Shown: positions 47,245 through 63,430 of the stretch, one piece after another
How positions within the stretch are numbered: the first letter of the stretch is position 1
Layout of the letters: each line of letters begins with the position of its first letter
Origin: Eledone cirrhosa
Taxonomy: Eukaryota
DNA length: 64,000 nt
Direction of reading: 5' to 3'
Assembly (NCBI GenBank): GCA_964016885.1
Contig: OZ024742.1
Location: 322,958,001-323,022,000 of the forward strand
Position numbers and translations under genes: made by a program
The notes under the pieces: generated by a model
What the model was told of the DNA's origin: nothing
Databases searched by the model: none
The model's input: the letters and a program-made list of their open reading frames with translations, nothing else

Positions 47245-48195
47245 ATGGCGGACAAAGCTATTCCTGGTTCTTCTTCAGAGAAAAATGAAACTCCTCTCCC
47301 TTTACCCAACTACAAACGGGTTAAGAATAAGATCTTACGATCTCAAATGTTCAGGAAAATGCTCATGGAGAAAAAGAAGATCGAAATAGCCAAAAGGAAA
47401 GAGAGAAAGAACATGATAAAAAAGGGATTACCTGTTCCTCCTAAGCAAGAACCAAAAACTATTGAGAAACTACGTGTGGCCGATGAAACTCTTATCTCGC
47501 AGAAAGATGAAGAAGTCGAAATAGACGAATCTTTAGATGAAATGGCAGCCCATTTCAAACGCGAAACGATTCCCAAAATACTGATCACAACGTCTTGTCG
47601 ATCGAAACTGCGGACTTACCATTTCTGTAAAGAACTTACGACCGTCTTTCCGAATGCGACTTACTATCACCGAAGAACCATAGCCATAAAAAATATCGTG
47701 CCCCAGGCGATCGAAAAGGAGTTCACCGACATCATTATTATAAACGAGAACAACAAAAAGCCTAATGGAATGCTTCTGGTTCATCTACCCGATGGACCTA
47801 CCATCCATTTTAAAGTAAGTAACGTGAAGCTACGAAAAGAAATACCAAAATGTGATTCTTCAACCGACCACAGACCTGAGTTGATACTTAACAACTTCAA
47901 CACCCGGTTGGGACACACAGTTGGACGTATGTTCGGGGCGCTCTTTCCTCTCGACCCTCAATTTCACGGACGGCGTGTTGTTACTTTTCACAACCAAAGA
48001 GACTTCATATTTTTCAGGCACCACCGTTACGTGTTCAAAAACCAAAAACGAGTTGGACTTGCGGAACTAGGGCCCCGCTTCACCCTCAAGATGAGATCCC
48101 TACAGAAAGGGGTTTTTGATTCTCGTTACGGAGAATACGAGTGGTTCCATAAAAGACACGAAATGGAAACTAGTAGACGTAAATTCTTCTTATAA
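47245..48195 (+). CDS. RPF1: Ribosome production factor 1 (Brix domain), single-exon CDS, 316 aa
   Basis: PKTIEKLR, PKILITTS, HLPDGPT.HFK, RPELILNNFNTRLGHTVGRM, VTFHNQRDFIFFRHHRY, ELGPRFTLK, C-terminal METSRRKFFL; ATTAAA about 40 bp after the stop. Confidence 0.96.
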   Translation: MADKAIPGSSSEKNETPLPLPNYKRVKNKILRSQMFRKMLMEKKKIEIAKRKERKNMIKKGLPVPPKQEPKTIEKLRVADETLISQKDEEVEIDESLDEMAAHFKRETIPKILITTSCRSKLRTYHFCKELTTVFPNATYYHRRTIAIKNIVPQAIEKEFTDIIIINENNKKPNGMLLVHLPDGPTIHFKVSNVKLRKEIPKCDSSTDHRPELILNNFNTRLGHTVGRMFGALFPLDPQFHGRRVVTFHNQRDFIFFRHHRYVFKNQKRVGLAELGPRFTLKMRSLQKGVFDSRYGEYEWFHKRHEMETSRRKFFL

Positions 48196-53059: not shown

Positions 53060-54541
53060 AAAACTAGCAAATAAAAACCTTCGCTAGTTTTAATCTTAAA
53101 ATTACCATTGACACTAACCTTTCCAATGTTAATTTTCTAGATATAAACCTAGATCTACCTACTACTTCTTATAAACCGTACCATAAACCTAATGAAAATT
53201 TAAAATATATAAATAAAGGCTCTTGCCATCCTCCTATAGTTTTTAAAAACCTTATTCCTAATATTAGCCATAGGATCTCCACCCTCTCTTCCTCAGAAGC
53301 TATTTTCAATAAGGCATCCTCCTACTATAATAAAGCCCTTCAAAATAGCGGATTCAGTGAACCGATTAAGTACATACCCAACAATACTAACTCCTTTAAA
53401 CATAATAATAGGAAAAGAAAAATAATCTGGTTCACCCCCCCCCCCCCCCCTACTCTTTAGCAGTTAAAACTAATGTAGGCAAAAAATTCCTAGAGCTCTT
53501 AGATAAACATTTCCCTAGAACACATAGATACTATAAGATCTTCAATAGAAACTGTGTCAAAATCAGCTACTCCTGCAGTCCCCCTATTAAATCTTATATC
53601 CTCAATAAGAAAATACCCAGAGAACATCAAAATTGCTTCTGTAGAGTCAAAAGTGAATGCCCATTACAAGGTAAATGCAACACCAAAGCCATTGTATATG
53701 CGGCTAAAGTGACAACCTACCAGCCACCAGCGAACGATATGTGGGTATGACACAAGACAAATTCAAAACGCGTTATTACTCACATGTCGCATCTTTCCGA
53801 CATCCTGAAAAAAGATTTACAACAGCTCTGGCTAGCAGAATATGGGATTTGAAAGATCAAGGTATCCAATATAAATTAGATTGGTCAATTTTGAACCAAT
53901 CTAAAGAATATGCAAGAGGAACAAGAAGATGCGCACTCTGCATAAGTGAAAAATATTGGATTTTACAGAACCTTAAATCACCAAAAACCTGCCTAAATGC
54001 AAAAACAAATTTTCACCAGTTGCCCACACATGAAATCACACTTGCTTTCCAGCTCTTACAAACTTAACTCACTTTCAGATACTTATCCTCCATAAACTCT
54101 TGTTCTTCACTTTCCTTAAATTACCCTCTTTACAGACTTCTCTTTCTGATTTACTTTTATTTTTATTTTTCACTTTACTTTTACTTCACATCCACCAGTG
54201 ACCCCCCCCCCCCCCCCCGCTTTTTGATTCACTTACCTTATATCTTCACATTTCCACACATTTCACTTCCCCATTTTCTTTCACTACCTGATAACACTTG
54301 TCACTTGCGTTTTCAACACCAGATATATTCTGTTATCTCTCAGCCGTTTTTATGTGTTTACTTCCGTATAATTTGTACTCATTTATTCATACGGCTGGTT
54401 TTTAATTTGTATCTATGCGTGTGAATATGCATGTGTTTGTATGTGTATACGAACGCATTCGTATGTGTGTGTGTGTTTATATCTGTTTTTTACATACTTA
54501 TATATGCGTGTATATGTATATATATATATATATGTATGTAT

Positions 54542-54583
<42 letters not shown>

Positions 54584-55445
54584 GCGTGCGTGCGATTAGA
54601 TATACATGTGCCTATATATGTGCTTTGTGTGTATGTATGCGCGCCTTTGTATGTATGTACGCATGTCTGTGCTTTTGTCTGTACGTATTTATATATATGT
54701 GTACGTACGAACCTATGTTTTCTATTTTTTCTAGTGTTATTTTATAATTGATAACCTTACTTTCTCTTTGATTTAAAATTTTTTTTATTCTCATATATTT
54801 TTTCATTTTTACATGTATCGACCTTCAGACTGACACTGCTTTGACTGATACACTCCCTTCCCTGTATTTATCACTCGCATGTATGTCGCGCGTGTGTCTG
54901 TGTTTATACGCGTGCTTTCATACTTGTATGTGTATATATTTCAATCCTCAATACCTGAGTCTGGATGTACGTTAACTCTATTATCTTACAATTTCTTTTT
55001 CAACATGTATTATATACGTATTTGTGGTCACACATACACTGATATGATTGCCCTCATATATGTACTTACGCACACATTTTTTCACTATACACATGCATTT
55101 GTACATACACACATATGTACATTTGTGAGTGAATATACACACATTTATACACATACCCTAACTATATTTCCTTATTTTATTTTTATATATCTCTTGCATT
55201 ACTTGTATTTATATATTTTTTTGCCCGTTAAACTTTTGCCTTTCTTGAGGAGATTTTTCAAATATTTCACTGTTTTAAATTTCCTTGTCCGACGAATGAA
55301 TGAGGACGTTTCTTGTATTCGGGAAACATCTGGTAATGAGGTAATTATATTGTATTGTTTATTATACATTAAATTTAGCTCTGGTACTTACATAGAGCAC
55401 TCTTCACTCCTATGACTCTTTCAATTTTCAACGGAAACTTCAATA

Positions 55446-55448
<3 letters not shown>
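53060..55448 (+). mobile_element. Penelope-like element, 5'-truncated (RT thumb + GIY-YIG endonuclease to about 54070, then 3' tail)
   Basis: NVNFLDINLDL, KPYHKPN, SCHPP, RKRKIIWFTPP, CFCRVKSECPLQGKC, YVGMT..FKTRY..H, CALCISEK; ends at (TA)n 55449-55518; tail extent is inferred. Confidence 0.85.
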
Positions 55449-55520
<72 letters not shown>

Positions 55521-55746
55521 ACGGTTAGCTTTCCTCTTTGTTGTTACTTGTCTCACTCGCTTTACGCGTTTTAATTGTCCTAATAACTTAATTTAGTTAT
55601 TATTGCACCAACGTGAGGTATATGATTTTTAATGCAATGAAATATCTATGATCGTTGGCAAATCACTGATGAGGGACTCATTTTATAACATGTTATCCAT
55701 GTGCAACCTGCAGTATTCTTCTCCCCATTTTTTCATATATATATAT

Positions 55747-56504
55747 ATATTAATTCAAAATATTAACAAAAATAGACATTCGTGTGATCAAGTATATTTT
55801 ATTATACATATTTCAGAGGTACTGAGCTATCTTCAACAGAACGTCCTCATCAGATAAAATAAGATGATACATGACATACCCTGACTTAGTAGATGGTTAA
55901 GATTCAGTCATGGTAGTGAATAAGATATGACAAAACTCAATATTTATATACCTTAAGATGGAACATGAAAAAATTTACATATAATACAGAGGGTGCGTGT
56001 GAGAAAGCTTAAAAATACATAATAGCAATTTACATAACTGTTAGAGATTCAAATAATTTAAATTATTGAAGAAAGAGGAAAGACAGAGAAACAGATGAGG
56101 AAAAAATATAGTTACTAGAAATATAGAAAGCAAAAGAGAATTGAGGAATAATTTTTATAGTATAAAGCATAGGGAGGGAGATTTGTATTGTCGTGGATGA
56201 ATAGGGTGTGATTAGATGATGCAAAAATATATATATCTATATAAATACATGAATATATATTTGGGCATAGCTTTGTGAAAGAGTAAACTCGAATCTTTGA
56301 ATTATCTAGAAGTATCCACCAATCTAAATATTAAATATATCTGGGTGTAATTATATGAGGGTTTAATTTCGAGTCCTTAGTTAATTAGAAATATACTAAC
56401 AATTAATTATATACACTATATATATCCAAACGTATCCGGCTGACCGTTAAATTTCGAATCATTTATGTTAGTTCAGAATAATGAATTAATCTAAAGGTAT
56501 AATA
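55747..56504 (+). repeat. Outer inverted repeat, left arm (decayed Penelope RT sequence)
   Basis: Reverse complement of 61535-62306 with few substitutions and two small indels; residual KLESLNYLEVSTNLN and ISKRI motifs. Confidence 0.93.
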
Positions 56505-56535
56505 TTTCAGGCTATAAAAGTTTATAAATATCTAT

Positions 56536-57631
56536 ACCAGATAGAAAAATGCGTACAGCAAAAAAAAAGTAATATTGTTGGAATATAAACCTTTAAAAAT
56601 ACAGGACAAGAAACTAAAATAAAACTTTAAAAGAATAGGACAAGAAACTAAGATAAAACTTTAAAAGAATAGGACAAGAAACTAAGACAAAACTTTAAAG
56701 AATTGGACAAGAAATAAAAAATTTTACAATAATATTAGTGGCAAAATTTTTATTGGTAAAAAATCGAGTTCCACATTCATAGGCTCTGGGTTCCACATTC
56801 AGAGGTCGTCGTCAGACCGGGGGGATCATTTGATCCTGGTTTGAACACCAATTGGGCCATAACCATACCCCTATTTCATCATTCGGCGACACGCCTCATG
56901 TGTCATGCATAATGTGAATGGACCCATGGGCCCATGAGCACAGATCTTGAGCAGCAGCGGACGGTCTTGTCGTCCCGCTCATCCTTGATCTTGACCAACC
57001 CGTCCATCTTCTCCTTGCATGTTGTCCTTGAGTTCAAGTCCGGCAGTCCAGATGAATGCGTGCCACAGCTTTCTGGTACAGGAAGGGGGAGCAGGAGGAC
57101 TGGAGGGATGACGGGACAGAGGGAGGGAGGACCGGTGGTTGAGGGAGGTGCCGTAGTCGGTGGTCAGAGTCGACATCTTGTCCCGGTCGTCTTCTCCATC
57201 TTCGTCTGGTGTTGCGGGACCAGAAGTGCATTCTTGGAGGAGACCTGCAGCTGCATCGGCCAATTCTTCTCGCAATGGTCATTCTGACGGAGCAGAACAG
57301 CTCAGCCAACCAACCCCAACCAGAACCAATTGCTCAGGGGCAACGCACAATGAGAGCATGACAATTATTATGCACTAATCAAGAAGATACTGGGGCATAG
57401 CACAGGAAACGAATAAAAAAATGTTGCCACTAATATTATTGTAAAATTTTTTATTTCTTGTCCAATTCTTTAAAGTTTTATCTTAGTTTCTTGTCCTATT
57501 CTTTTAAAGTTTTATCTTAGTTTCTTGTCCTATTCTTTTAAAGTTTTATTTTAGTTTCTTGTCCTCTATTTTTAAAGGTTTATATTCCAACAATATTACT
57601 TTTTTTTGCTGTACGCATTTTTCTATCTGGT
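56536..57631. mobile_element. Foldback-like cassette: about 220-bp TIRs (56536-56755 / 57412-57631) with internal ~32-bp tandem subrepeats around a GC-rich ~650-bp core
   Basis: accagatagaaaaatgcgtacagc... mirrored by ...gctgtacgcatttttctatctggt; unit aggacaagaaactaa.ataaaactttaaaagaat repeated 3-4 times in each arm. Confidence 0.85.
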
Positions 57632-57904
57632 CTACTATTTTTTAAGGCAATGCAAGCAACAACTATCTAATAATTAAATGATCATAGTGAATTACTGACA
57701 AGTGATTGACATTTTAAAGTTCTTTTGAGTATAATTGCAATCTAGTTGAGGCAACTGGCTTAATGACAAAGCTAGTAAATCATGAATGCATTTGAGATGA
57801 TTAGTGCATAATAGTGAATTGGTGAAACTTGTGCATTTCAATGGTGTTACAACAATAGATGTAAGTTATATAGTAGTAATACTTTATCATTTTAACTTTT
57901 TAGA

Positions 57905-58264
57905 ATGGACAAAAACCCATGCAAAGAAATGACTTTGACTGCAATGATTCTCTCCAATTTACTTACAAAGCAAAACGTGGTCAAATACCTTATCATCTCT
58001 GATAAAATGCCCATTGAATCACTGAAAATCGGATGCATGGAATTCCTCATAAAATGCACCTATGAATCGGAAGCCATCACATATATCAATGGATATAGGG
58101 AGTTGTTCACACTGGAAGACCATCACTTCATTTGTGACTTCATCAGTTATCTCCACGATTATCTCAGACACCCAATGTCATTAATGAGAGGTGATCCAAT
58201 GTGTGAGCATGTAACTAATCTTATAGAAGTTGTTATCGATCACCTGGCTTTTAGTGACATTTGA
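57905..58264 (+). CDS. Small protein (119 aa) resembling a stand-alone SPOP/BPM-type BACK domain
   Basis: Open ATG-TGA frame in AT-rich DNA; LSNLLTKQNVVKYLIISDKMPIESLKIGCMEFL...INGYRELF resembles SPOP [33 protein letters not shown]...SGWKSM; AATAAA at about 58341. Confidence 0.55.
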   Translation: MDKNPCKEMTLTAMILSNLLTKQNVVKYLIISDKMPIESLKIGCMEFLIKCTYESEAITYINGYRELFTLEDHHFICDFISYLHDYLRHPMSLMRGDPMCEHVTNLIEVVIDHLAFSDI

Positions 58265-58435
58265 CTGATAATGATGTATTTTTAAAAAGTATGTGTACAT
58301 TCTTGTTACTATTTTAAGGCAATGCAAGCAACAACTATTTAATAAAATTTAAATTTAAAAATGACCATTGTGCATTACTAGTATGATGACATTTTATTAA
58401 GTTACAAAATTAGTCAGTCAGCCATAGAACAAGGA

Positions 58436-59231
58436 TCAGGTTGCAAAAACATTGGCAAAAATTTGTGTCAATTTAAGATTTCCAACATTGTTCAAATGAA
58501 TCATATCTGGTTTGAAGTCAGATTTGTCAAATTTTGACCAATTTTCAATGTTGTGAAGATTGGGCAAGTTCAATTTTTGAATCATTTCTTTCATGCAGTA
58601 ATTAAACTTTTCTAAACGAGAATTTCTCTTGCCCAAGTCATTTTTATTTTCAATTACACTTTGTGGACGTGGAATGACACCACTGTAGAAAATGGGTGTA
58701 CAGTGGTGCTTTTCCGCTATTTTCTGTAGCCTTGCAAAGAGACTCTTCCCCTGTTTTTCCGGTTTTGTGCCTCGAATGGGCACTTTGTCCTTAATTTACA
58801 AATAAATGATTAATAAAAAATACTTGGGCAAAAATTATTGTATTACTTTGCACAGCTTTGTAGTGTCAACGGTGCGACGAGGATTCAGATCATTAGAGCC
58901 GACATGAACCACCAATACTTTCACAAAAGGACAACAGATAACAATGTTGGCGATTAACATTACCTGGCCCTGACGGGCCCCAGGTATACAAAATATCTAA
59001 GTATTTTTGTTGGTATGATAAGTAAATACATTTGAATTAATATTTTTATACCTTCTGGTCATTCGATTTCGCCACATTTCTAATTATGGATTTGTAAAAT
59101 CTGGCATGAATGTGAATTTGATCAGTCCAATTGCCCGATTTTAGTGAAAAGTTTTGATTCGAAATGGAAATACTCCATTTCCGTGCCATGGAAAAAATGA
59201 ATAAGCCGATCAAAAAGCCGCGAAACATCAT
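58436..59231 (-). CDS. SGNH/GDSL hydrolase-like protein, 227 aa, exons 59231-59052, 58996-58847, 58789-58436
   Basis: Two phase-0 GT-AG introns (55 and 57 bp) join an open frame with KSIIRNV (block I-like), CIPGA (II), VVHVGSND (III), YSGVIPR and DMIHLNNVG (V); hydrophobic N-terminus. Confidence 0.8.
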
Positions 59232-59269
59232 TTTTAATTAAGCGAAATTAGTGGATGCAAATCTCAGAA

Positions 59270-59706
59270 AATATTGTACACTATTTGCACCTATCGCACT
59301 ATTCGCACCTATTGGTACAAAAATATAGCGCACTATTCGCACCTATCGGTACAAAAAATCGCACGACTGTTAATAATACTAGAAGTGTAAACTATCTGTT
59401 GAATACCTGGTATATGAAGAGCAACCGATACGATCGGTCGGCGATCTGTCTTGATGAAGAATGAAGTGAAATTTTGGTCTGGTTGTTTTCATCGGTGTTT
59501 CGCAGAGATGCCGGCACGAACAAAGGTGTCAGTGACACAAAGTTGTCCGCTTGAACAAAGGTGTCGGTCCGACAAAGGTGTCAGTCAGACAGACAGTCAG
59601 ACAGTGTCACAGTCGGTGCGACAAAGCGATCGATGCGATTAAAAAAAATTTAACTCACATGTTTACCTATATTTTCGCAAACTATTGATAGATTGGTACA
59701 AAAAAT
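59270..59706. repeat. Short motif arrays upstream of the SGNH gene
   Basis: cactatt.gcacctat x3, ggtacaaaaa x3, acaaag.tgtc x4, cagtcagaca repeats. Confidence 0.7.
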
Positions 59707-59894
59707 AGTATATTGTCTAAAGTTCAAGACGATATTAGTCAGTTATACATAACATAATATAATATAATATAATAAATAAGTTACTGTTAATATTGTTAAA
59801 ATTAAGATTTTAGATCAATTATTATATTAGGATCATGTAATACATATATACTATAAATATACAAATCAAACTTCATGAATCATAAGGATAAGAA
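59707..59894 (+). repeat. Inner inverted repeat, left arm (pairs with 61026-61213)
   Basis: 188-bp reverse-complement match; covers the decayed GIY-YIG start. Confidence 0.92.
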
Positions 59895-59949
59895 CCAGAT
59901 TCAAAGTATATAAGTAAATTGTTTGCGATCATATAAGTGCCAAATAATA

Positions 59950-60700
59950 ATAAGTGCTATATAATTTAAAAATACAATAAAATTTTTAAGGATCTATATT
60001 GTAGTATAATATCATATTTAAAGTGTCTGCAAACATGAGAAAGAGAAAACATAAGATTTTCATCGACCCGAAGGTAACCCGAATTTAATTAAATTAAAAA
60101 ATAATAATCGTTATATAATTTAGAAAATATTTAACAATTATAACACTAGAATGTCCTTAAGTATCTAAAGTACTTATAAATGTAGCTAGAAGCATGATAT
60201 TAAACTAGATATTCACATTTGTCCAAATATATACAGAGTATTCTGTCCGGAACTCAAAACGATATTAATGATCCATATACATATAATAAATAATAAATAC
60301 AATCATTGTTAGTAAAGTTATAATTGAAATTTTACATCAAGTTAAGTGGAAAAAGTTTGTCGACTTGGATCGTGTGCGACGCATATACCATAAATATATA
60401 TAAATCAAACATCCTGGATCTTAAAACTAACATACTCCAAAAGAATAAATACATAAATGCATGAATGGTTTACGGTTCATTACAACTGTTAACCATATAA
60501 GCTATATATATTAAAAAAAAAAATACAAGAATCCCAATCAAATTAAATGTATCTACACAATCAAATGATATGCATATTCATCAAGAGATCATGTTAACAA
60601 TCTATATGTTTATATATTTATATAGAACCCTTAATCTAACATTAATCATATCATAAATGATTAAAAAATTATTATAAGGTTTTATAATCTGTTATAACAT
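59950..60700 (+). mobile_element. Second, diverged decayed Penelope-like copy
   Basis: Colinear patchy similarity to the reverse complement of 61026-61545 (gcaaacatgagaaag, agaatg..ttaa.tatctaaag, catttgtc.aaatatataca, aaatcaaac). Confidence 0.6.
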
Positions 60701-60748
60701 TTTATGCACTCTGTTGATAAGAGACGTCAAAAATTAGAACCTATTTAT

Positions 60749-62400
60749 TTAGTGTTTTTTCCTGACTTTTTGCGAGGCTTGGAATGTAGAGGGAGCTTTA
60801 TGAAGGCAATTTGAGAATAATTCACTTTTTTTGTTAATTAAATTTTCATAATTAGTGATTATTAATAGGGTCTCCATAGTACAGAGATTGCAGTTATGTG
60901 ATGTTGAAGAATTCAAGTAGATTCGACTATTACACAGCTTCGACCAAGAAATCGAGTATTTAAAATGTTTGTCTTTTAACGACCATATAAGTTGTGATAA
61001 AGAAGTCGAAGATTTCCTATTAGGATTCTTATCCTTATGATTCATGAAGTTTGATTTGTATATTTATAGTATATATGTATTACATGATCCTAATATAATA
61101 ATTGATCTAAAATCTTAATTTTAACAATATTAACAGTAACTTATTTATTATATTATATTATATTATGTTATGTATAACTGACTAATATCGTCTTGAACTT
61201 TAGACAATATACTCTTTGTATATATTTAGACAAATGCGTATACCTAATTTAATAATACCCTTTTTTAAGTTTAATTATAAGGCCTTTAGATATTTTAAGG
61301 CATTCTAATTGTTAATTTTAAATTTTTAAAGTTATAACTGTAATTATTTTCTAAATTATATAATGAGAATTATTATTTTAATATAACATTTTAAAAAAAT
61401 ATATAATATAAGATAATATAATTTAATATGGATTACCTTTGTGTGGATGAAAATACTAAGTCTCTTCTTTCTCATGTTTGCAAATACTTTAAATATGATT
61501 TTATAAATTAAATATGTTAGTCTTTAGATTAATTTATTATACCTTTAGATTAATTCATTATTCAATAAATGATTCGAAATTTAACGGTCAGCCGGATACG
61601 TTTGGATATATATAGTGTATATAATTAATTGTTAGTATATTTCTAATTAACTAAGGACTCGAAATTAAACCCTCATATAATTACACCCAGATATATTTAA
61701 TATTTAGATTGATGGATACTTCTAGATAATTCAAAGATTCGAGTTTACTCTTTCACAAAGCTATGCCCAAATGTATATTCATGTATTTATATAGATATAT
61801 ATATTTTTGCATCATCTAATCACACCCTATTCATCCACGACAATACAAATCTCCCTCCCTATGCTTTATACTATAAAAATTATTCCTCCTTGTCTCTCTA
61901 TCCCTGATCAATTCTCTTTTGCTTTCTATACTTCTAGTAACTATATTTTTTCCTTATCTGTTTCTCTGTCTTTCTTCTTTTTTCAATAATTTAAATTATT
62001 TGAATCTCTAACAGTTATGTAAATTGCTATTATGTATTTTTAAGCTTTCTCACACGCACCCTCTGTATTTTATGTAAATTTTTTCATGTCTCAATCTTAA
62101 GGTATATAAATATTGAGTTTTGTCATATCTTATTCACTACCATGTCTGAATCTTAACCATCTACTAAGTCAGGGTATGTCATGCATCATCTTATTTTATC
62201 TGATGAGGACGTACTGTTGAAGATAGCTCAGTACCTCTGAAATATGTATAATAAAATATACTTGATCACACGAATGTCTATTTTTGTTAATATTTTGAAT
62301 TAATATTAATAACTCCGGAAAACCAATCTTGTTGAGTGCTTGCAATCTATTGTAAAACTCATTCTTTGATTTATTCATTGAACCTTGTTTAACCTTTAAT
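60749..62400 (-). mobile_element. Heavily decayed Penelope-like element (RT + GIY-YIG); includes the right arms of both inverted repeats
   Basis: ORF 60749-61045 STSLSQLIWSLKDK..ISWSKL..CNLCTMET..LINKKSELFSNCLHK is a typical PLE endonuclease C-terminus; upstream RT motifs are degenerate; ends near (TA)n. Confidence 0.75.
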
Positions 62401-63430
62401 ATATATATATGTCAATCTCTCAGCCTACCGATTTCTATCTACCTTTGTCTTTCAGTTCTTGTTTTTCAGTTTGTTCTGTTGCATAACGACTGAAGTTGAT
62501 ATTTAAATTGTCGGAATACGTGCTGTTTCTATTCCGCCCACCACCTCTACTGTCTCATTATTCCACTCTCCCATCCTCTGGCTATTGTCTGATCAACAGC
62601 CACTTTAAACACTGACTAAACAACAATGAAATCACGAACATAGCCATCAACTTTCATAACGCCATTACCACCATCGCCATCACAACTACCAACGACAACA
62701 ACCTTCATGTCAAGATATCCCTAGCCCTAGAGTCTCTACGTAGTCGCTGAAATCACGCACAAGCATCTTCCTAGGAGCATCCAACAATTGTGTGTTTAAC
62801 TCATAATTTGCTAAGGCGGTGTAATGAGTCGTAGTTACAGCTCACATCTATGAATGTTTTAGCTGGCTTTCTACGATGAGGTTTCTTTGGTATTTTAATA
62901 CTAGGGGCACTAGTTCTACCATGCATCTTTCTCAACAACACAACCTGCAGAAATCGAACCCACAACCTATCCACTAGACCACGTGCTTTCACGGTGCAAT
63001 GAGAAAAGAACGAAAGAGGCGGGGAGACCTGTTTAGAGACTCTAGTTTAATGGGGCCCTGAATCATGTCATATCATAGCTACGGTAACTCCCAGATCAGC
63101 AAATAATCACGCCTGACTATTAATTATTATACTTCTTATTGTATAACTTTGCAACACACACGTCAAATTATGTGCTTTATTATACCACTTATATACTGTA
63201 ATGTAGTGATAAGCTTTATAATCTCTAACGTGGAAATTCCGTTTCACTCACTAATTCAGAATTAGTGGCCATGCGTGGAAAACATGGTACATGAAAATAT
63301 TTAATACAATTTTTTGTTAGTGATTTTATTTTAAAAAATGCCAAACCTTTCACAAAATACTTACAAAAGAAGAAATAAAAATGTTCCTTAAAACTTTTTC
63401 TTTTCCCTTATACAAAGTATTTATCTAGTG

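Follow-up and report, generated by a model that had tools for sequence, protein, structure and literature searches.

The 6.65-kb structure found between two (TA)n tracts in the 64-kb window (the whole stretch of DNA analysed) is probably a local, one-off chimera, rather than a member of a standing family of composite elements. A decayed Penelope-like nest carries at this place two recent local inverted duplicates, A/A' and B/B'. The 3.17-kb piece between A and B belongs to a different young family, which continues to the right past the segment hosted here, and probably also to the left. Since its cargo is only part of another element, itself young and multi-copy, the spot is probably a patchwork; at least three sources contributed to the interior. 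The features are the following.

55736-55749: (TA)7 tract, left end
55747-56504, minus strand: arm A, outward-pointing PLE 3'/pLTR-type segment with predicted hammerhead, inverted copy of A' (sequence alignment, motif descriptor)
55795-55861, minus: predicted minimal type-I hammerhead motif of arm A (core 55853, stem I 8 bp, stem II with one extra mismatch)
56505-56532: 28-bp spacer at the A/insert junction, origin not matched
56533-59706: insert, piece from the interior of another family, young and multi-copy
56533-56751, plus: IR1 left arm, holding 3.9 34-bp repeats
56758-57416: GC-rich core between the IR1 arms (53% GC, versus 23% in the flanking arm)
57417-57634, minus: IR1 right arm, holding 3.9 34-bp repeats
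57633-57721, plus: direct repeat DR1, upstream of the BACK-like ORF
57861-57903, plus: candidate GT-AG intron of 43 nt, placed by sequence within the BACK-like gene's 5' leader
57905-58264, plus: putative BTB-C-terminal/BACK-like ORF, open, 119 aa (ESM Atlas)
58307-58403, plus: direct repeat DR2, lying where the two convergent genes end; AATAAA present on either strand
58436-59189, minus: putative SGNH/GDSL-like esterase gene, three exons (59189-59052, 58996-58847, 58789-58436)
59240-59706: right part of the insert, rich in short repeats
59707-59894, plus: B, exact inverted copy of B'
59962-60450, plus: D, older, diverged paralogue of C'+B' (65% over 490 columns)
60749-61063, minus: PLE GIY-YIG C-terminal coding remnant, overlapping B' (tblastx, score against null)
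61026-61213, minus: B'
61214-61534, minus: C', remnant of a PLE linker (321 bp) that the left copy lacks; an RKKR-like motif was read by eye at 61472
61535-62306, plus: arm A', segment with predicted hammerhead, sense opposite to the GIY-YIG remnant (alignment, motif descriptor)
62192-62258, plus: predicted minimal type-I hammerhead motif of arm A' (core 62200, stem I 8 bp, stem II 9/10 pairs)
62307-62398, minus: 92-bp extension, right end only
62400-62409: (TA)5 tract, right end

The PLE origin of the scaffold is supported by the GIY-YIG end, the outward hammerheads and the (TA)n flanks. The 60749-61063 region scores 109 as a GIY-YIG C-terminus of PLE type, versus a null of 28.5, and matches the GIY-YIG region of a neighbouring PLE (tblastx, E=1e-6; motifs recognised by eye), with no match in Pfam. 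The hammerhead descriptor hits the 64 kb twice, once per outer arm and facing outward in both, versus one match in 30 shuffles (0.03). Rfam returned no hammerhead hit. A first-pass annotation had assigned both sets of arms to one RT/GIY-YIG sequence. Support for this extends to B', which runs in frame into the PLE GIY-YIG C-terminus on the minus strand; in A', RT/EN similarity on the minus strand is not significant (z at most 0.6) and the predicted hammerhead lies on the opposite strand. The 92-bp extension is possibly the RT-thumb remnant of an element interrupted by A', as it gives a thumb-like RT signal (z=4.2, 0/60 shuffles) which is borderline, being the best of 30 tests.

The inverted repeats noted earlier were all recovered. 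The ~760-bp outer arms are 94.6% identical over 780 columns (BLAST), and differ, by eye, by 12 substitutions (~1.6%) and a few indels, one of ~21 bp. As had been stated, (TA)n is present at both ends, although the right arm stops 92 bp before its tract. No third copy of the arm A segment occurs within the 64-kb window. No unique-sequence TSD surrounds the 6.65-kb structure, the only flanking duplication being the (TA) microsatellite, of possibly 12 nt. The second pair is identical at 188/188 positions, and at 59807 B and B' share an allele rare in the X1 contigs (3328.5 of 3351.7 depth units differ). B and B' are thus local copies, because of their identity and of a shared allele lacking support in ~99% of X1 depth. 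The ~300 bp reported missing from the middle of the plus-strand copy correspond to the 321 bp of C', in place of which the left copy has the 28-bp spacer and the insert, reported as ~3.2 kb and measuring 3174 bp. Similarity of the spacer to neighbouring sequences is not significant (p 0.09-0.47).

The third pair, IR1, is 97.7% identical over 219 bp (BLAST), its earlier limits (56536-56755 for the left arm) being off by at most 4 bp. It is part of the cargo family and has no relation to the PLE arms; according to contig-depth arithmetic, its left arm has probably been cut ~31 bp short of the family arm. In the GC-rich core no reading frame was recognised as protein. DR1 and DR2 share a 34-bp core 97% identical. 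The cut at 59706-59708 shows imperfect 5/6 microhomology to the C'/B' boundary. The motif descriptor found no hammerhead inside the insert, and no transposase was found. PolB, integrase and capsid genes are missing from the 3.17-kb insert, the donor reaching beyond the copy in the window. No viral-contig relatives were found.

Sequence features support a cargo made of a putative intron-bearing, TE-type esterase gene and a BACK-like ORF, arranged convergently. The BACK-only gene had been reported as open, and so it is. The 119-aa product scores 0.91 to BTB/BACK clusters in the ESM Atlas (recognition 2385), and 9/10 of the best family matches fall in one family or clan; no sequence homologues and no Pfam domain were found, and the structure model is low (pLDDT 40). 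The SGNH gene, also described as open, is so once a 55-nt and a 57-nt GT-AG intron are spliced out, and not as an unspliced frame. Translation from the ATG at 59189 yields 213 aa. SGNH hydrolases are defined by blocks I (GDS), II (G), III (GxN) and V (DxxH). The predicted protein features a serine in YKS near residue 34, PGA at 51, GSND at 79 and DMIH at 191, block I being atypical for YKS in place of GDS. Exon 3 matches PF14606 below the Pfam cut-off (E=0.0035), and exon 2 has a single, weak PDB match (E=0.31) to 4C1B, an 'ORF1-encoded protein' from ZfL2-1. The AlphaFold pLDDT is 47. The gene is co-oriented with arm A and has kept its introns.

How the parts came together may be outlined as follows. 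The right-hand locus would have been copied in inverted orientation as A(-C)-B, the cargo replacing C. By one route, a PLE reverse transcriptase would start at the hammerhead end in (TA)n, switch template by jumping to the cargo transcript, introns being kept, and close on B by microhomology. By the other, the same arrangement would result from DNA repair synthesis from an ectopic copy. Template switching and repair synthesis are inseparable here and about equally probable. PLEs are described in PMC8557442 and PMC3846280 as targeting (TA)n, joining at microhomologies and retaining introns, and as leaving tails on one side and inverted copies truncated at the 5' end. Divergence per copy of the arms (0.8%) is close to the distance of the insert from its family (0.9%), hence one event or two close events fit.

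Some observations sit uneasily with a local chimera. Both outer ends adjoin (TA)n and a 12-nt duplication is possible, as for a single PLE-made insertion. Moreover, A matches A' at both apparent ends of A, and the insert starts at most 28 bp from the inner end; a simple duplication explains these coincident ends by chance only. The absence of a bridge across the window's own insert/B junction among the contigs listed is a further point of this kind.

The structure had originally been proposed to be a gene-carrying non-autonomous mobile unit, with mobilisation by PLEs as one option. A recurring unit of this kind, copied as one RNA with the hammerhead end as cis signal, could correspond to the whole 6.65 kb, or to the insert plus A (4 kb, 5'-truncated at 59706). 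We regard it as unlikely. RT-mediated capture survives as one of the two likely mechanisms. Outward hammerheads in both arms, (TA)n at both ends with an extension at one, and the co-orientation of the intron-retaining SGNH gene with A all agree with a recurring unit, and a precedent is described for A. vaga (PMC3846280). Public contig sets, X1, X4, X5 and X6 among them, were compared with the window. Single-contig depth, which does not equal copy number, falls from the A to the B side in X1 (2009, ~1250, ~570) and in X4 (40.5, 12.6, ~4), as 5' truncation would produce.

Against a recurring unit, the insert family continues past 59708 into non-B sequence among the contigs listed. In X4 record 14, 317 of 542 letters match 59399-59708, and among the loose ends listed for X1 one contig leaves 94 letters behind 59708. 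The usual upstream neighbour of B is C-like, as seen in 6 of the X1 contigs listed. On the left side, coverage in the X4 bin 57616-57758 points to a contig of depth ~35 that leaves at 57665, into sequence that nothing in the window closely resembles (4 mismatches in 20 at best). Adding the 56.2 that continue as in the window gives ~91; since this is close to the arm total of 89.3 (core 40.5), most X4 left arms, ~35 of ~40 depth units, seem to lead to non-A sequence, by depth arithmetic in one low-depth run. Among the pieces listed, the insert family is multi-copy, carries three species labels, and is ~1% from the window, differing at 14/1656 (X1), 23/2537 (X4), 20/2312 (X5) and 12/1104 (X6) positions. 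The five listed Penelope pieces differ at 54/626 positions in all, or ~9% (hand-summed; singly 8/141, 11/109, 10/149, 18/180 and 7/47), so that insert and PLE parts are about tenfold apart in distance from family contigs. A direct inner pLTR copy, a hammerhead inside the insert and a unique-sequence TSD are lacking as well. The listings comprise 21 loose ends, with 80 more, and 32 pieces, with 1227 more, and contigs drop rare variants, so a minority of copies with the exact arrangement of the window would escape detection.

Three unrelated origins would be a still less probable account. According to it, a discrete ~770-bp hammerhead element inserted twice, independently, B and B' were homogenised by conversion between inverted Penelope paralogues, and the cargo element inserted ordinarily and was trimmed by later deletions. 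A' does resemble an opposite-strand insertion between the thumb-like and RKKR-like motifs, which are spaced 80 versus 60 nt once A' is removed, and A is exactly that segment. At the A/A' rate ~3 differences would be expected between B and B', and none is seen (P ~0.05). Other family copies also have B-like sequence running into 59895 and beyond (record 15 in X4 and, in X1, the variants at 59906 and 59909). This account requires, however, that the element be present twice at a distance of 5 kb and nowhere else in the 64 kb, the copy order is the one predicted by a single inverted duplication, and the thumb match is borderline.

A foldback DNA transposon using dead retroelement sequence as long TIRs, also suggested at first, is very improbable. 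The 760-bp inverted arms do enclose unrelated cargo, but they are unequal in extent, with 92 extra bp on the right, and end in retroelement-type 3' ends with hammerheads. Matched terminal tips with a fixed TSD were not found, the duplication being microsatellite-only, nor was a transposase, and IR1, the sole TIR-like pair that has tandem subrepeats, lies inside the cargo family. An assembly artefact is equally improbable: B and B' are identical, and neither the stretch nor the insert/B junction is spanned by any of the contigs listed, but a fold-back read should give identical, adjacent arms, whereas 12 substitutions and several indels separate A from A' and the IR1 arms are ~2% apart, and 30/30 depth bins are covered by real X1 contigs.

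Within the local chimera favoured here, the donor of the cargo is the point worth pursuing: its family is young and homogeneous, and its accessory genes are compact and split by introns. The combination of TE-type esterase, BACK-only gene and GC-rich core in paired arms has no match in the collections searched, and neither have its proteins, while copies are near-identical in three species labels. Breakpoints 57774 (X5, X6) and 58043 (X4) join the same partner end, which starts with an initiator-like motif. This would fit an inverted copy, variably truncated at its 5' end, attached to a 5' start that stays fixed. Coverage falling in one direction, and two breakpoints sharing one partner end with initiator-like start, hint at a Penelope/Terminon-like donor. 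On a speculative reading, the cargo may be the 3' part of a retroelement of this type outside bdelloids, large, active until recently and so far undescribed, ~99% identical across at least three species labels, whose intron-containing accessory genes would be the TE-type esterase and a BACK-only possible Cullin-3 decoy. The window copy would then be an RT-made chimera of donor RNA with a hammerhead PLE end. If true, Terminon-like cargo carriage extends to another animal group, and horizontal spread and RT template jumping become tractable to test.

The locus illustrates in detail how nested palindromes arise in PLE nests within microsatellites and how such nests acquire intron-bearing foreign sequence, an already known kind of event. 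Capture of intron-bearing genes framed by pLTRs is known from bdelloids (PMC3846280). In Adineta vaga, Penelope trans-mobilises intron-containing genes, and an NRPS gene lies between Pen3a pLTRs (PMC3846280). Similarly, PLE terminal repeats at this locus enclose non-PLE coding sequence that has retained its introns, but the cargo was cut from another repeat family, and there is no unique TSD. Canonical EN+ Penelope insertions with inverted pLTR and tail, as described in PMC8557442 and PMC4209133, share with the locus outward hammerhead-bearing inverted ends, (TA)n, a GIY-YIG remnant, a one-sided extension and a minimal type-I hammerhead whose helix III is short. Their tail is 30-40 bp, whereas the extension here is 92 bp and possibly antisense to its arm; a direct inner pLTR is missing, the interior is a patchwork, and stem II closes on G-U instead of the conserved G-C. 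Terminons/Athena elements (PMC6431247) similarly feature a GDSL/SGNH esterase accessory ORF, 5'-polar sequence loss and a hammerhead at the nearby end. In them the 3' hammerhead is followed by reverse-complement telomeric repeats; no hammerhead so linked was seen at either arm end here, both arms running out into (TA)n and AT-rich sequence. The insert also differs in having no RT gene, an interstitial site and convergent genes, and the Terminon review (PMC6431247) does not mention a BACK/BTB ORF. The LINE ORF1 esterase (PDB 4C1B), to which the match is weak, has the same CxPGA...VHVGxND pattern; unlike it, the gene found here is stand-alone, split by introns and atypical in block I.

All three inverted pairs of the first-pass annotation were recovered by self-comparison of the window, and the locus (55747-62400) can be traced to three sequence sources. 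Its main features are as follows.

Features of the composite locus
55747-56504 and 61535-62306, inverted: outer arms A and A', 12 substitutions and a few indels (~1.6%)
56505-56532: spacer of 28 bp
56533-59706: insert (cargo) of 3174 bp
56533-56751 and 57417-57634, inverted: IR1, the pair inside the insert, 97.7%; 3.9 x 34-bp subrepeats in each arm
57905-58264, +: BACK-like ORF, recognised by language-model likeness to BTB/BACK proteins only
59707-59894 and 61026-61213, inverted: second pair B and B', 188/188 identical
61214-61534, -: C', linker remnant of a Penelope-like element (PLE)

B and B' are evidently identical locally. The left copy lacks, as had been claimed, the middle segment: C' (321 bp) has no counterpart (C) there, and the spacer and insert are found instead. 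The (TA)n reported at both ends was found as well, the whole locus being bounded by (TA)7 and (TA)5, two of the 17 such tracts within the window. Three further features go beyond the first-pass annotation: a segment D, a direct repeat and a GC-rich core. D (59962-60450) aligns to C'B' at 65% over 490 columns and is its older paralogue. The apparent similarity of the spacer, or of 59895-59961, to an arm end was not significant. The BACK-like ORF is flanked by a direct repeat, and IR1 encloses a GC-rich core. This core (56758-57416, 659 bp, 53% GC) lies between arms of 23% GC and holds several open frames of 70-124 aa, none recognised; a GC-core frame was not recognised in the ESM Atlas either (score 0.77). 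Outside the locus, the 217-bp segment 55520-55736, flanked by (TA)35 and (TA)7, carries a heptamer resembling a hammerhead core, the second core motif being absent, and is possibly another PLE end. A Brix-domain gene (PF04427, E=2e-5) has its last exon at 48001-48195 (+), consistent with the earlier RPF1 label.

The minus strand at 60749-61063 encodes a PLE GIY-YIG C-terminus, which B' enters in frame; in comparison with the PLE nearby (53.1-54.1 kb), tblastx gave E=1e-6 and the score was 109 (null 28.5). A separate, better-preserved 5'-truncated copy, 53068-55517 (+), served as local reference for PLE comparisons. It features RT thumb, RKRK linker and GIY-YIG, is frameshifted, has a long 3' region and a (TA)35 end, and shows by eye, near 55290, a degenerate motif like a hammerhead. 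The 64 kb hold two matches to a minimal type-I hammerhead descriptor, one at 62200 (+) and one at 55853 (-); 30 shuffled windows gave one match. Rfam returned no hammerhead, only microsatellite-driven miRNA hits and weak others, and MFE folding did not recover the fold (z 0.13 and -1.73), so that the motif is a descriptor-based prediction. Metazoan PLE hammerheads, in passages of a published account (PMC4209133), have a short helix III and an 8-bp stem I; the arm motifs share both features, and differ by a G-U closing pair. The matches and this architecture together argue that A and A' are outward-pointing PLE ends. Cephalopod PLE families are reportedly covered in supplementary file S1 of Craig et al., which might help to place the arms in a family.

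The sense of A' is opposite to that of the GIY-YIG remnant. The 92 bp past A' resemble, on the minus strand, an RT thumb (z=4.2, 0/60 shuffles, best of 30 tests). Once A' is removed in silico, the thumb-like motif lies 80 nt from an RKKR-like motif, a spacing that is 60 nt in the PLE nearby. A' may thus have inserted, on the opposite strand, into an older PLE copy. The idea, conceived by eye, that the A' plus strand encodes a GIY-YIG end found no significant similarity, and the resemblance of this strand to the RT end (z=3.2, one of 30 tests) was treated as chance. The tract 60475-60550 (+) (score 51, null 29; 0/200 shuffles, one of 70 tests) is a possible third PLE linker remnant.

Two open cargo genes had been described. 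The BACK-like ORF is open as claimed; the SGNH-like esterase gene (-) opens, over 213 aa, only once two predicted GT-AG introns of 55 and 57 nt are removed. By language-model features the former scored 0.91 to BTB/BACK, with 9/10 best family hits in one family or clan; sequence relatives were found in 0/2 candidates and in none of 1.84 billion representatives, and PDB gave no matches. The SGNH-like gene features PGA, GSND and DMIH in SGNH order, with GDS replaced by YKS. Its exon 3 matched PF14606 at E=0.0035, below the Pfam cut-off, had no relatives among 160 longer candidates or the single near one, and had weak unrelated PDB matches only; the sole PDB match of exon 2 was an ORF1 protein (4C1B, E=0.31). 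PHROGs and NCBIfam searches similarly yielded weak, unrelated matches. Neither protein matched viral contigs, and DNA motifs were absent from viral (two motifs) and metagenome contigs (two motifs). AlphaFold gave poor models from the single sequences (pLDDT 40 for the BACK-like ORF, 47 for the SGNH-like product). Six listed coding differences between family and window comprise four synonymous, two missense and no stops. The SGNH-like gene is presumably spliced and active; no splice joints were seen in the runs, which are contigs of unknown type with no RNA run listed.

The insert belongs to a separate multi-copy family, the donor. The interval 56752-59706 is present wholly or partly in 11 of the 15 listed runs. 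Contigs of four runs from two studies were aligned on 56758-61025: X1 and X4 (organism A), X5 (B) and X6 (C); P1 may include the source sample, and organisms D-H (shares 0.05-0.15) were left out. The comparison covers the matches listed, beyond which are 80 further loose ends and 1227 further pieces; none of the pieces listed spans the whole stretch. Among those listed, the distance of insert pieces from the window is 0.85 (X1), 0.91 (X4), 0.87 (X5) and 1.09% (X6), sums that omit X5 record 23 (interval of record 22) and X6 records 26-27 (47 bp, 0 differences); five listed Penelope pieces differ at 54/626 positions (8.6%). The insert is evidently younger than the Penelope scaffold. At 20 listed variant sites of the insert, drawn from the best-supported half of 80 rows, organism B has the X1 letter at 16/16 covered sites and C at 11/11. 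For most of the insert sites listed, X1 lacks the window allele; contigs drop rare variants, however, and contig depth is not copy number. In X5, nine Penelope bins have depth 0-0.65 and the insert is covered, five of the nine being also at 0 in X4, and absent cover is not evidence. The IR1 arm 57417-57634 is far commoner than the rest of the insert (bin depth 38525 in X1, 665 in X5). Diverged relatives of this arm in organism B retain a downstream DR-like motif, which suggests a wider family of such modules.

On the right side, the family continues past 59708 into other sequence (an X1 loose end; X4 record 14, 317/542 letters), the letters upstream of B are C-like in six X1 contigs among those listed, and microhomology at the insert-B junction is imperfect (5-of-6). 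The right junction of the window copy is evidently non-standard. On the left, depth arithmetic in X4 implies a contig of depth ~35 departing at 57665. Together with 56.2 continuing as in the window this makes ~91, a figure near the arm total (89.3, with a core of 40.5), so that, indirectly and in this one run, most left arms seem to extend ~31 bp further and then to lead into non-A sequence. In X1 and X4 alike, depth declines stepwise from the side of A to that of B. Breakpoints at 57774 (X5, X6) and 58043 (X4, depth 44.6 to 12.6) are joined to a common partner end, a sequence absent from the window, where no fit over 20 positions has fewer than 6 mismatches, and likewise from viral and metagenome contigs.

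The likeliest reading of the composite is a PLE-nest chimera, an event of a known kind, and probably a one-off, whether made by RT template jumping or by DNA repair synthesis. The right-hand segment would have been copied, in reverse orientation, beside (TA)7, and C would have been replaced by a cargo fragment at about the same time, as 0.8% per arm against 0.9% for the insert suggests. RT template jumping would account for the outer end at the hammerhead 3' end, the switch at the inner end of A, the co-orientation of the esterase and intron retention; DNA repair synthesis would explain why the order is A-C-B and why C is lost. The structure first observed stands, and its interpretation as a gene-carrying mobile unit is supported in part. 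A recurring PLE-mobilised unit is unlikely. Independent origins of the parts are a weaker and quite improbable explanation. Weaker still are a foldback DNA element, the only flanking duplication lying within microsatellite, and a mis-assembly, both very improbable. The main lead from the locus is the donor family rather than the chimeric composite. It is unlikely, though possible, that the donor is a giant cargo-bearing PLE-type element. Titles and listings of the literature yielded no description of the family, a weak negative.

Penelope is among the abundant coleoid repeats in passages of PMC8967140, which feature no family like the donor. PLEs are described, in parts of PMC8557442, as having units flanked by inverted 5'-truncated copies, a tail on one side and insertion targeted to (TA)n. 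Terminons, as portrayed in sections of PMC6431247, carry GDSL esterases, are 5'-truncated and end in telomeric repeats; the locus differs from them in this last respect. In Adineta vaga, cargo framed by PLEs retains introns, truncated copies are flanked by inverted pLTRs and joins show microhomology (sections of PMC3846280), and the locus works likewise.
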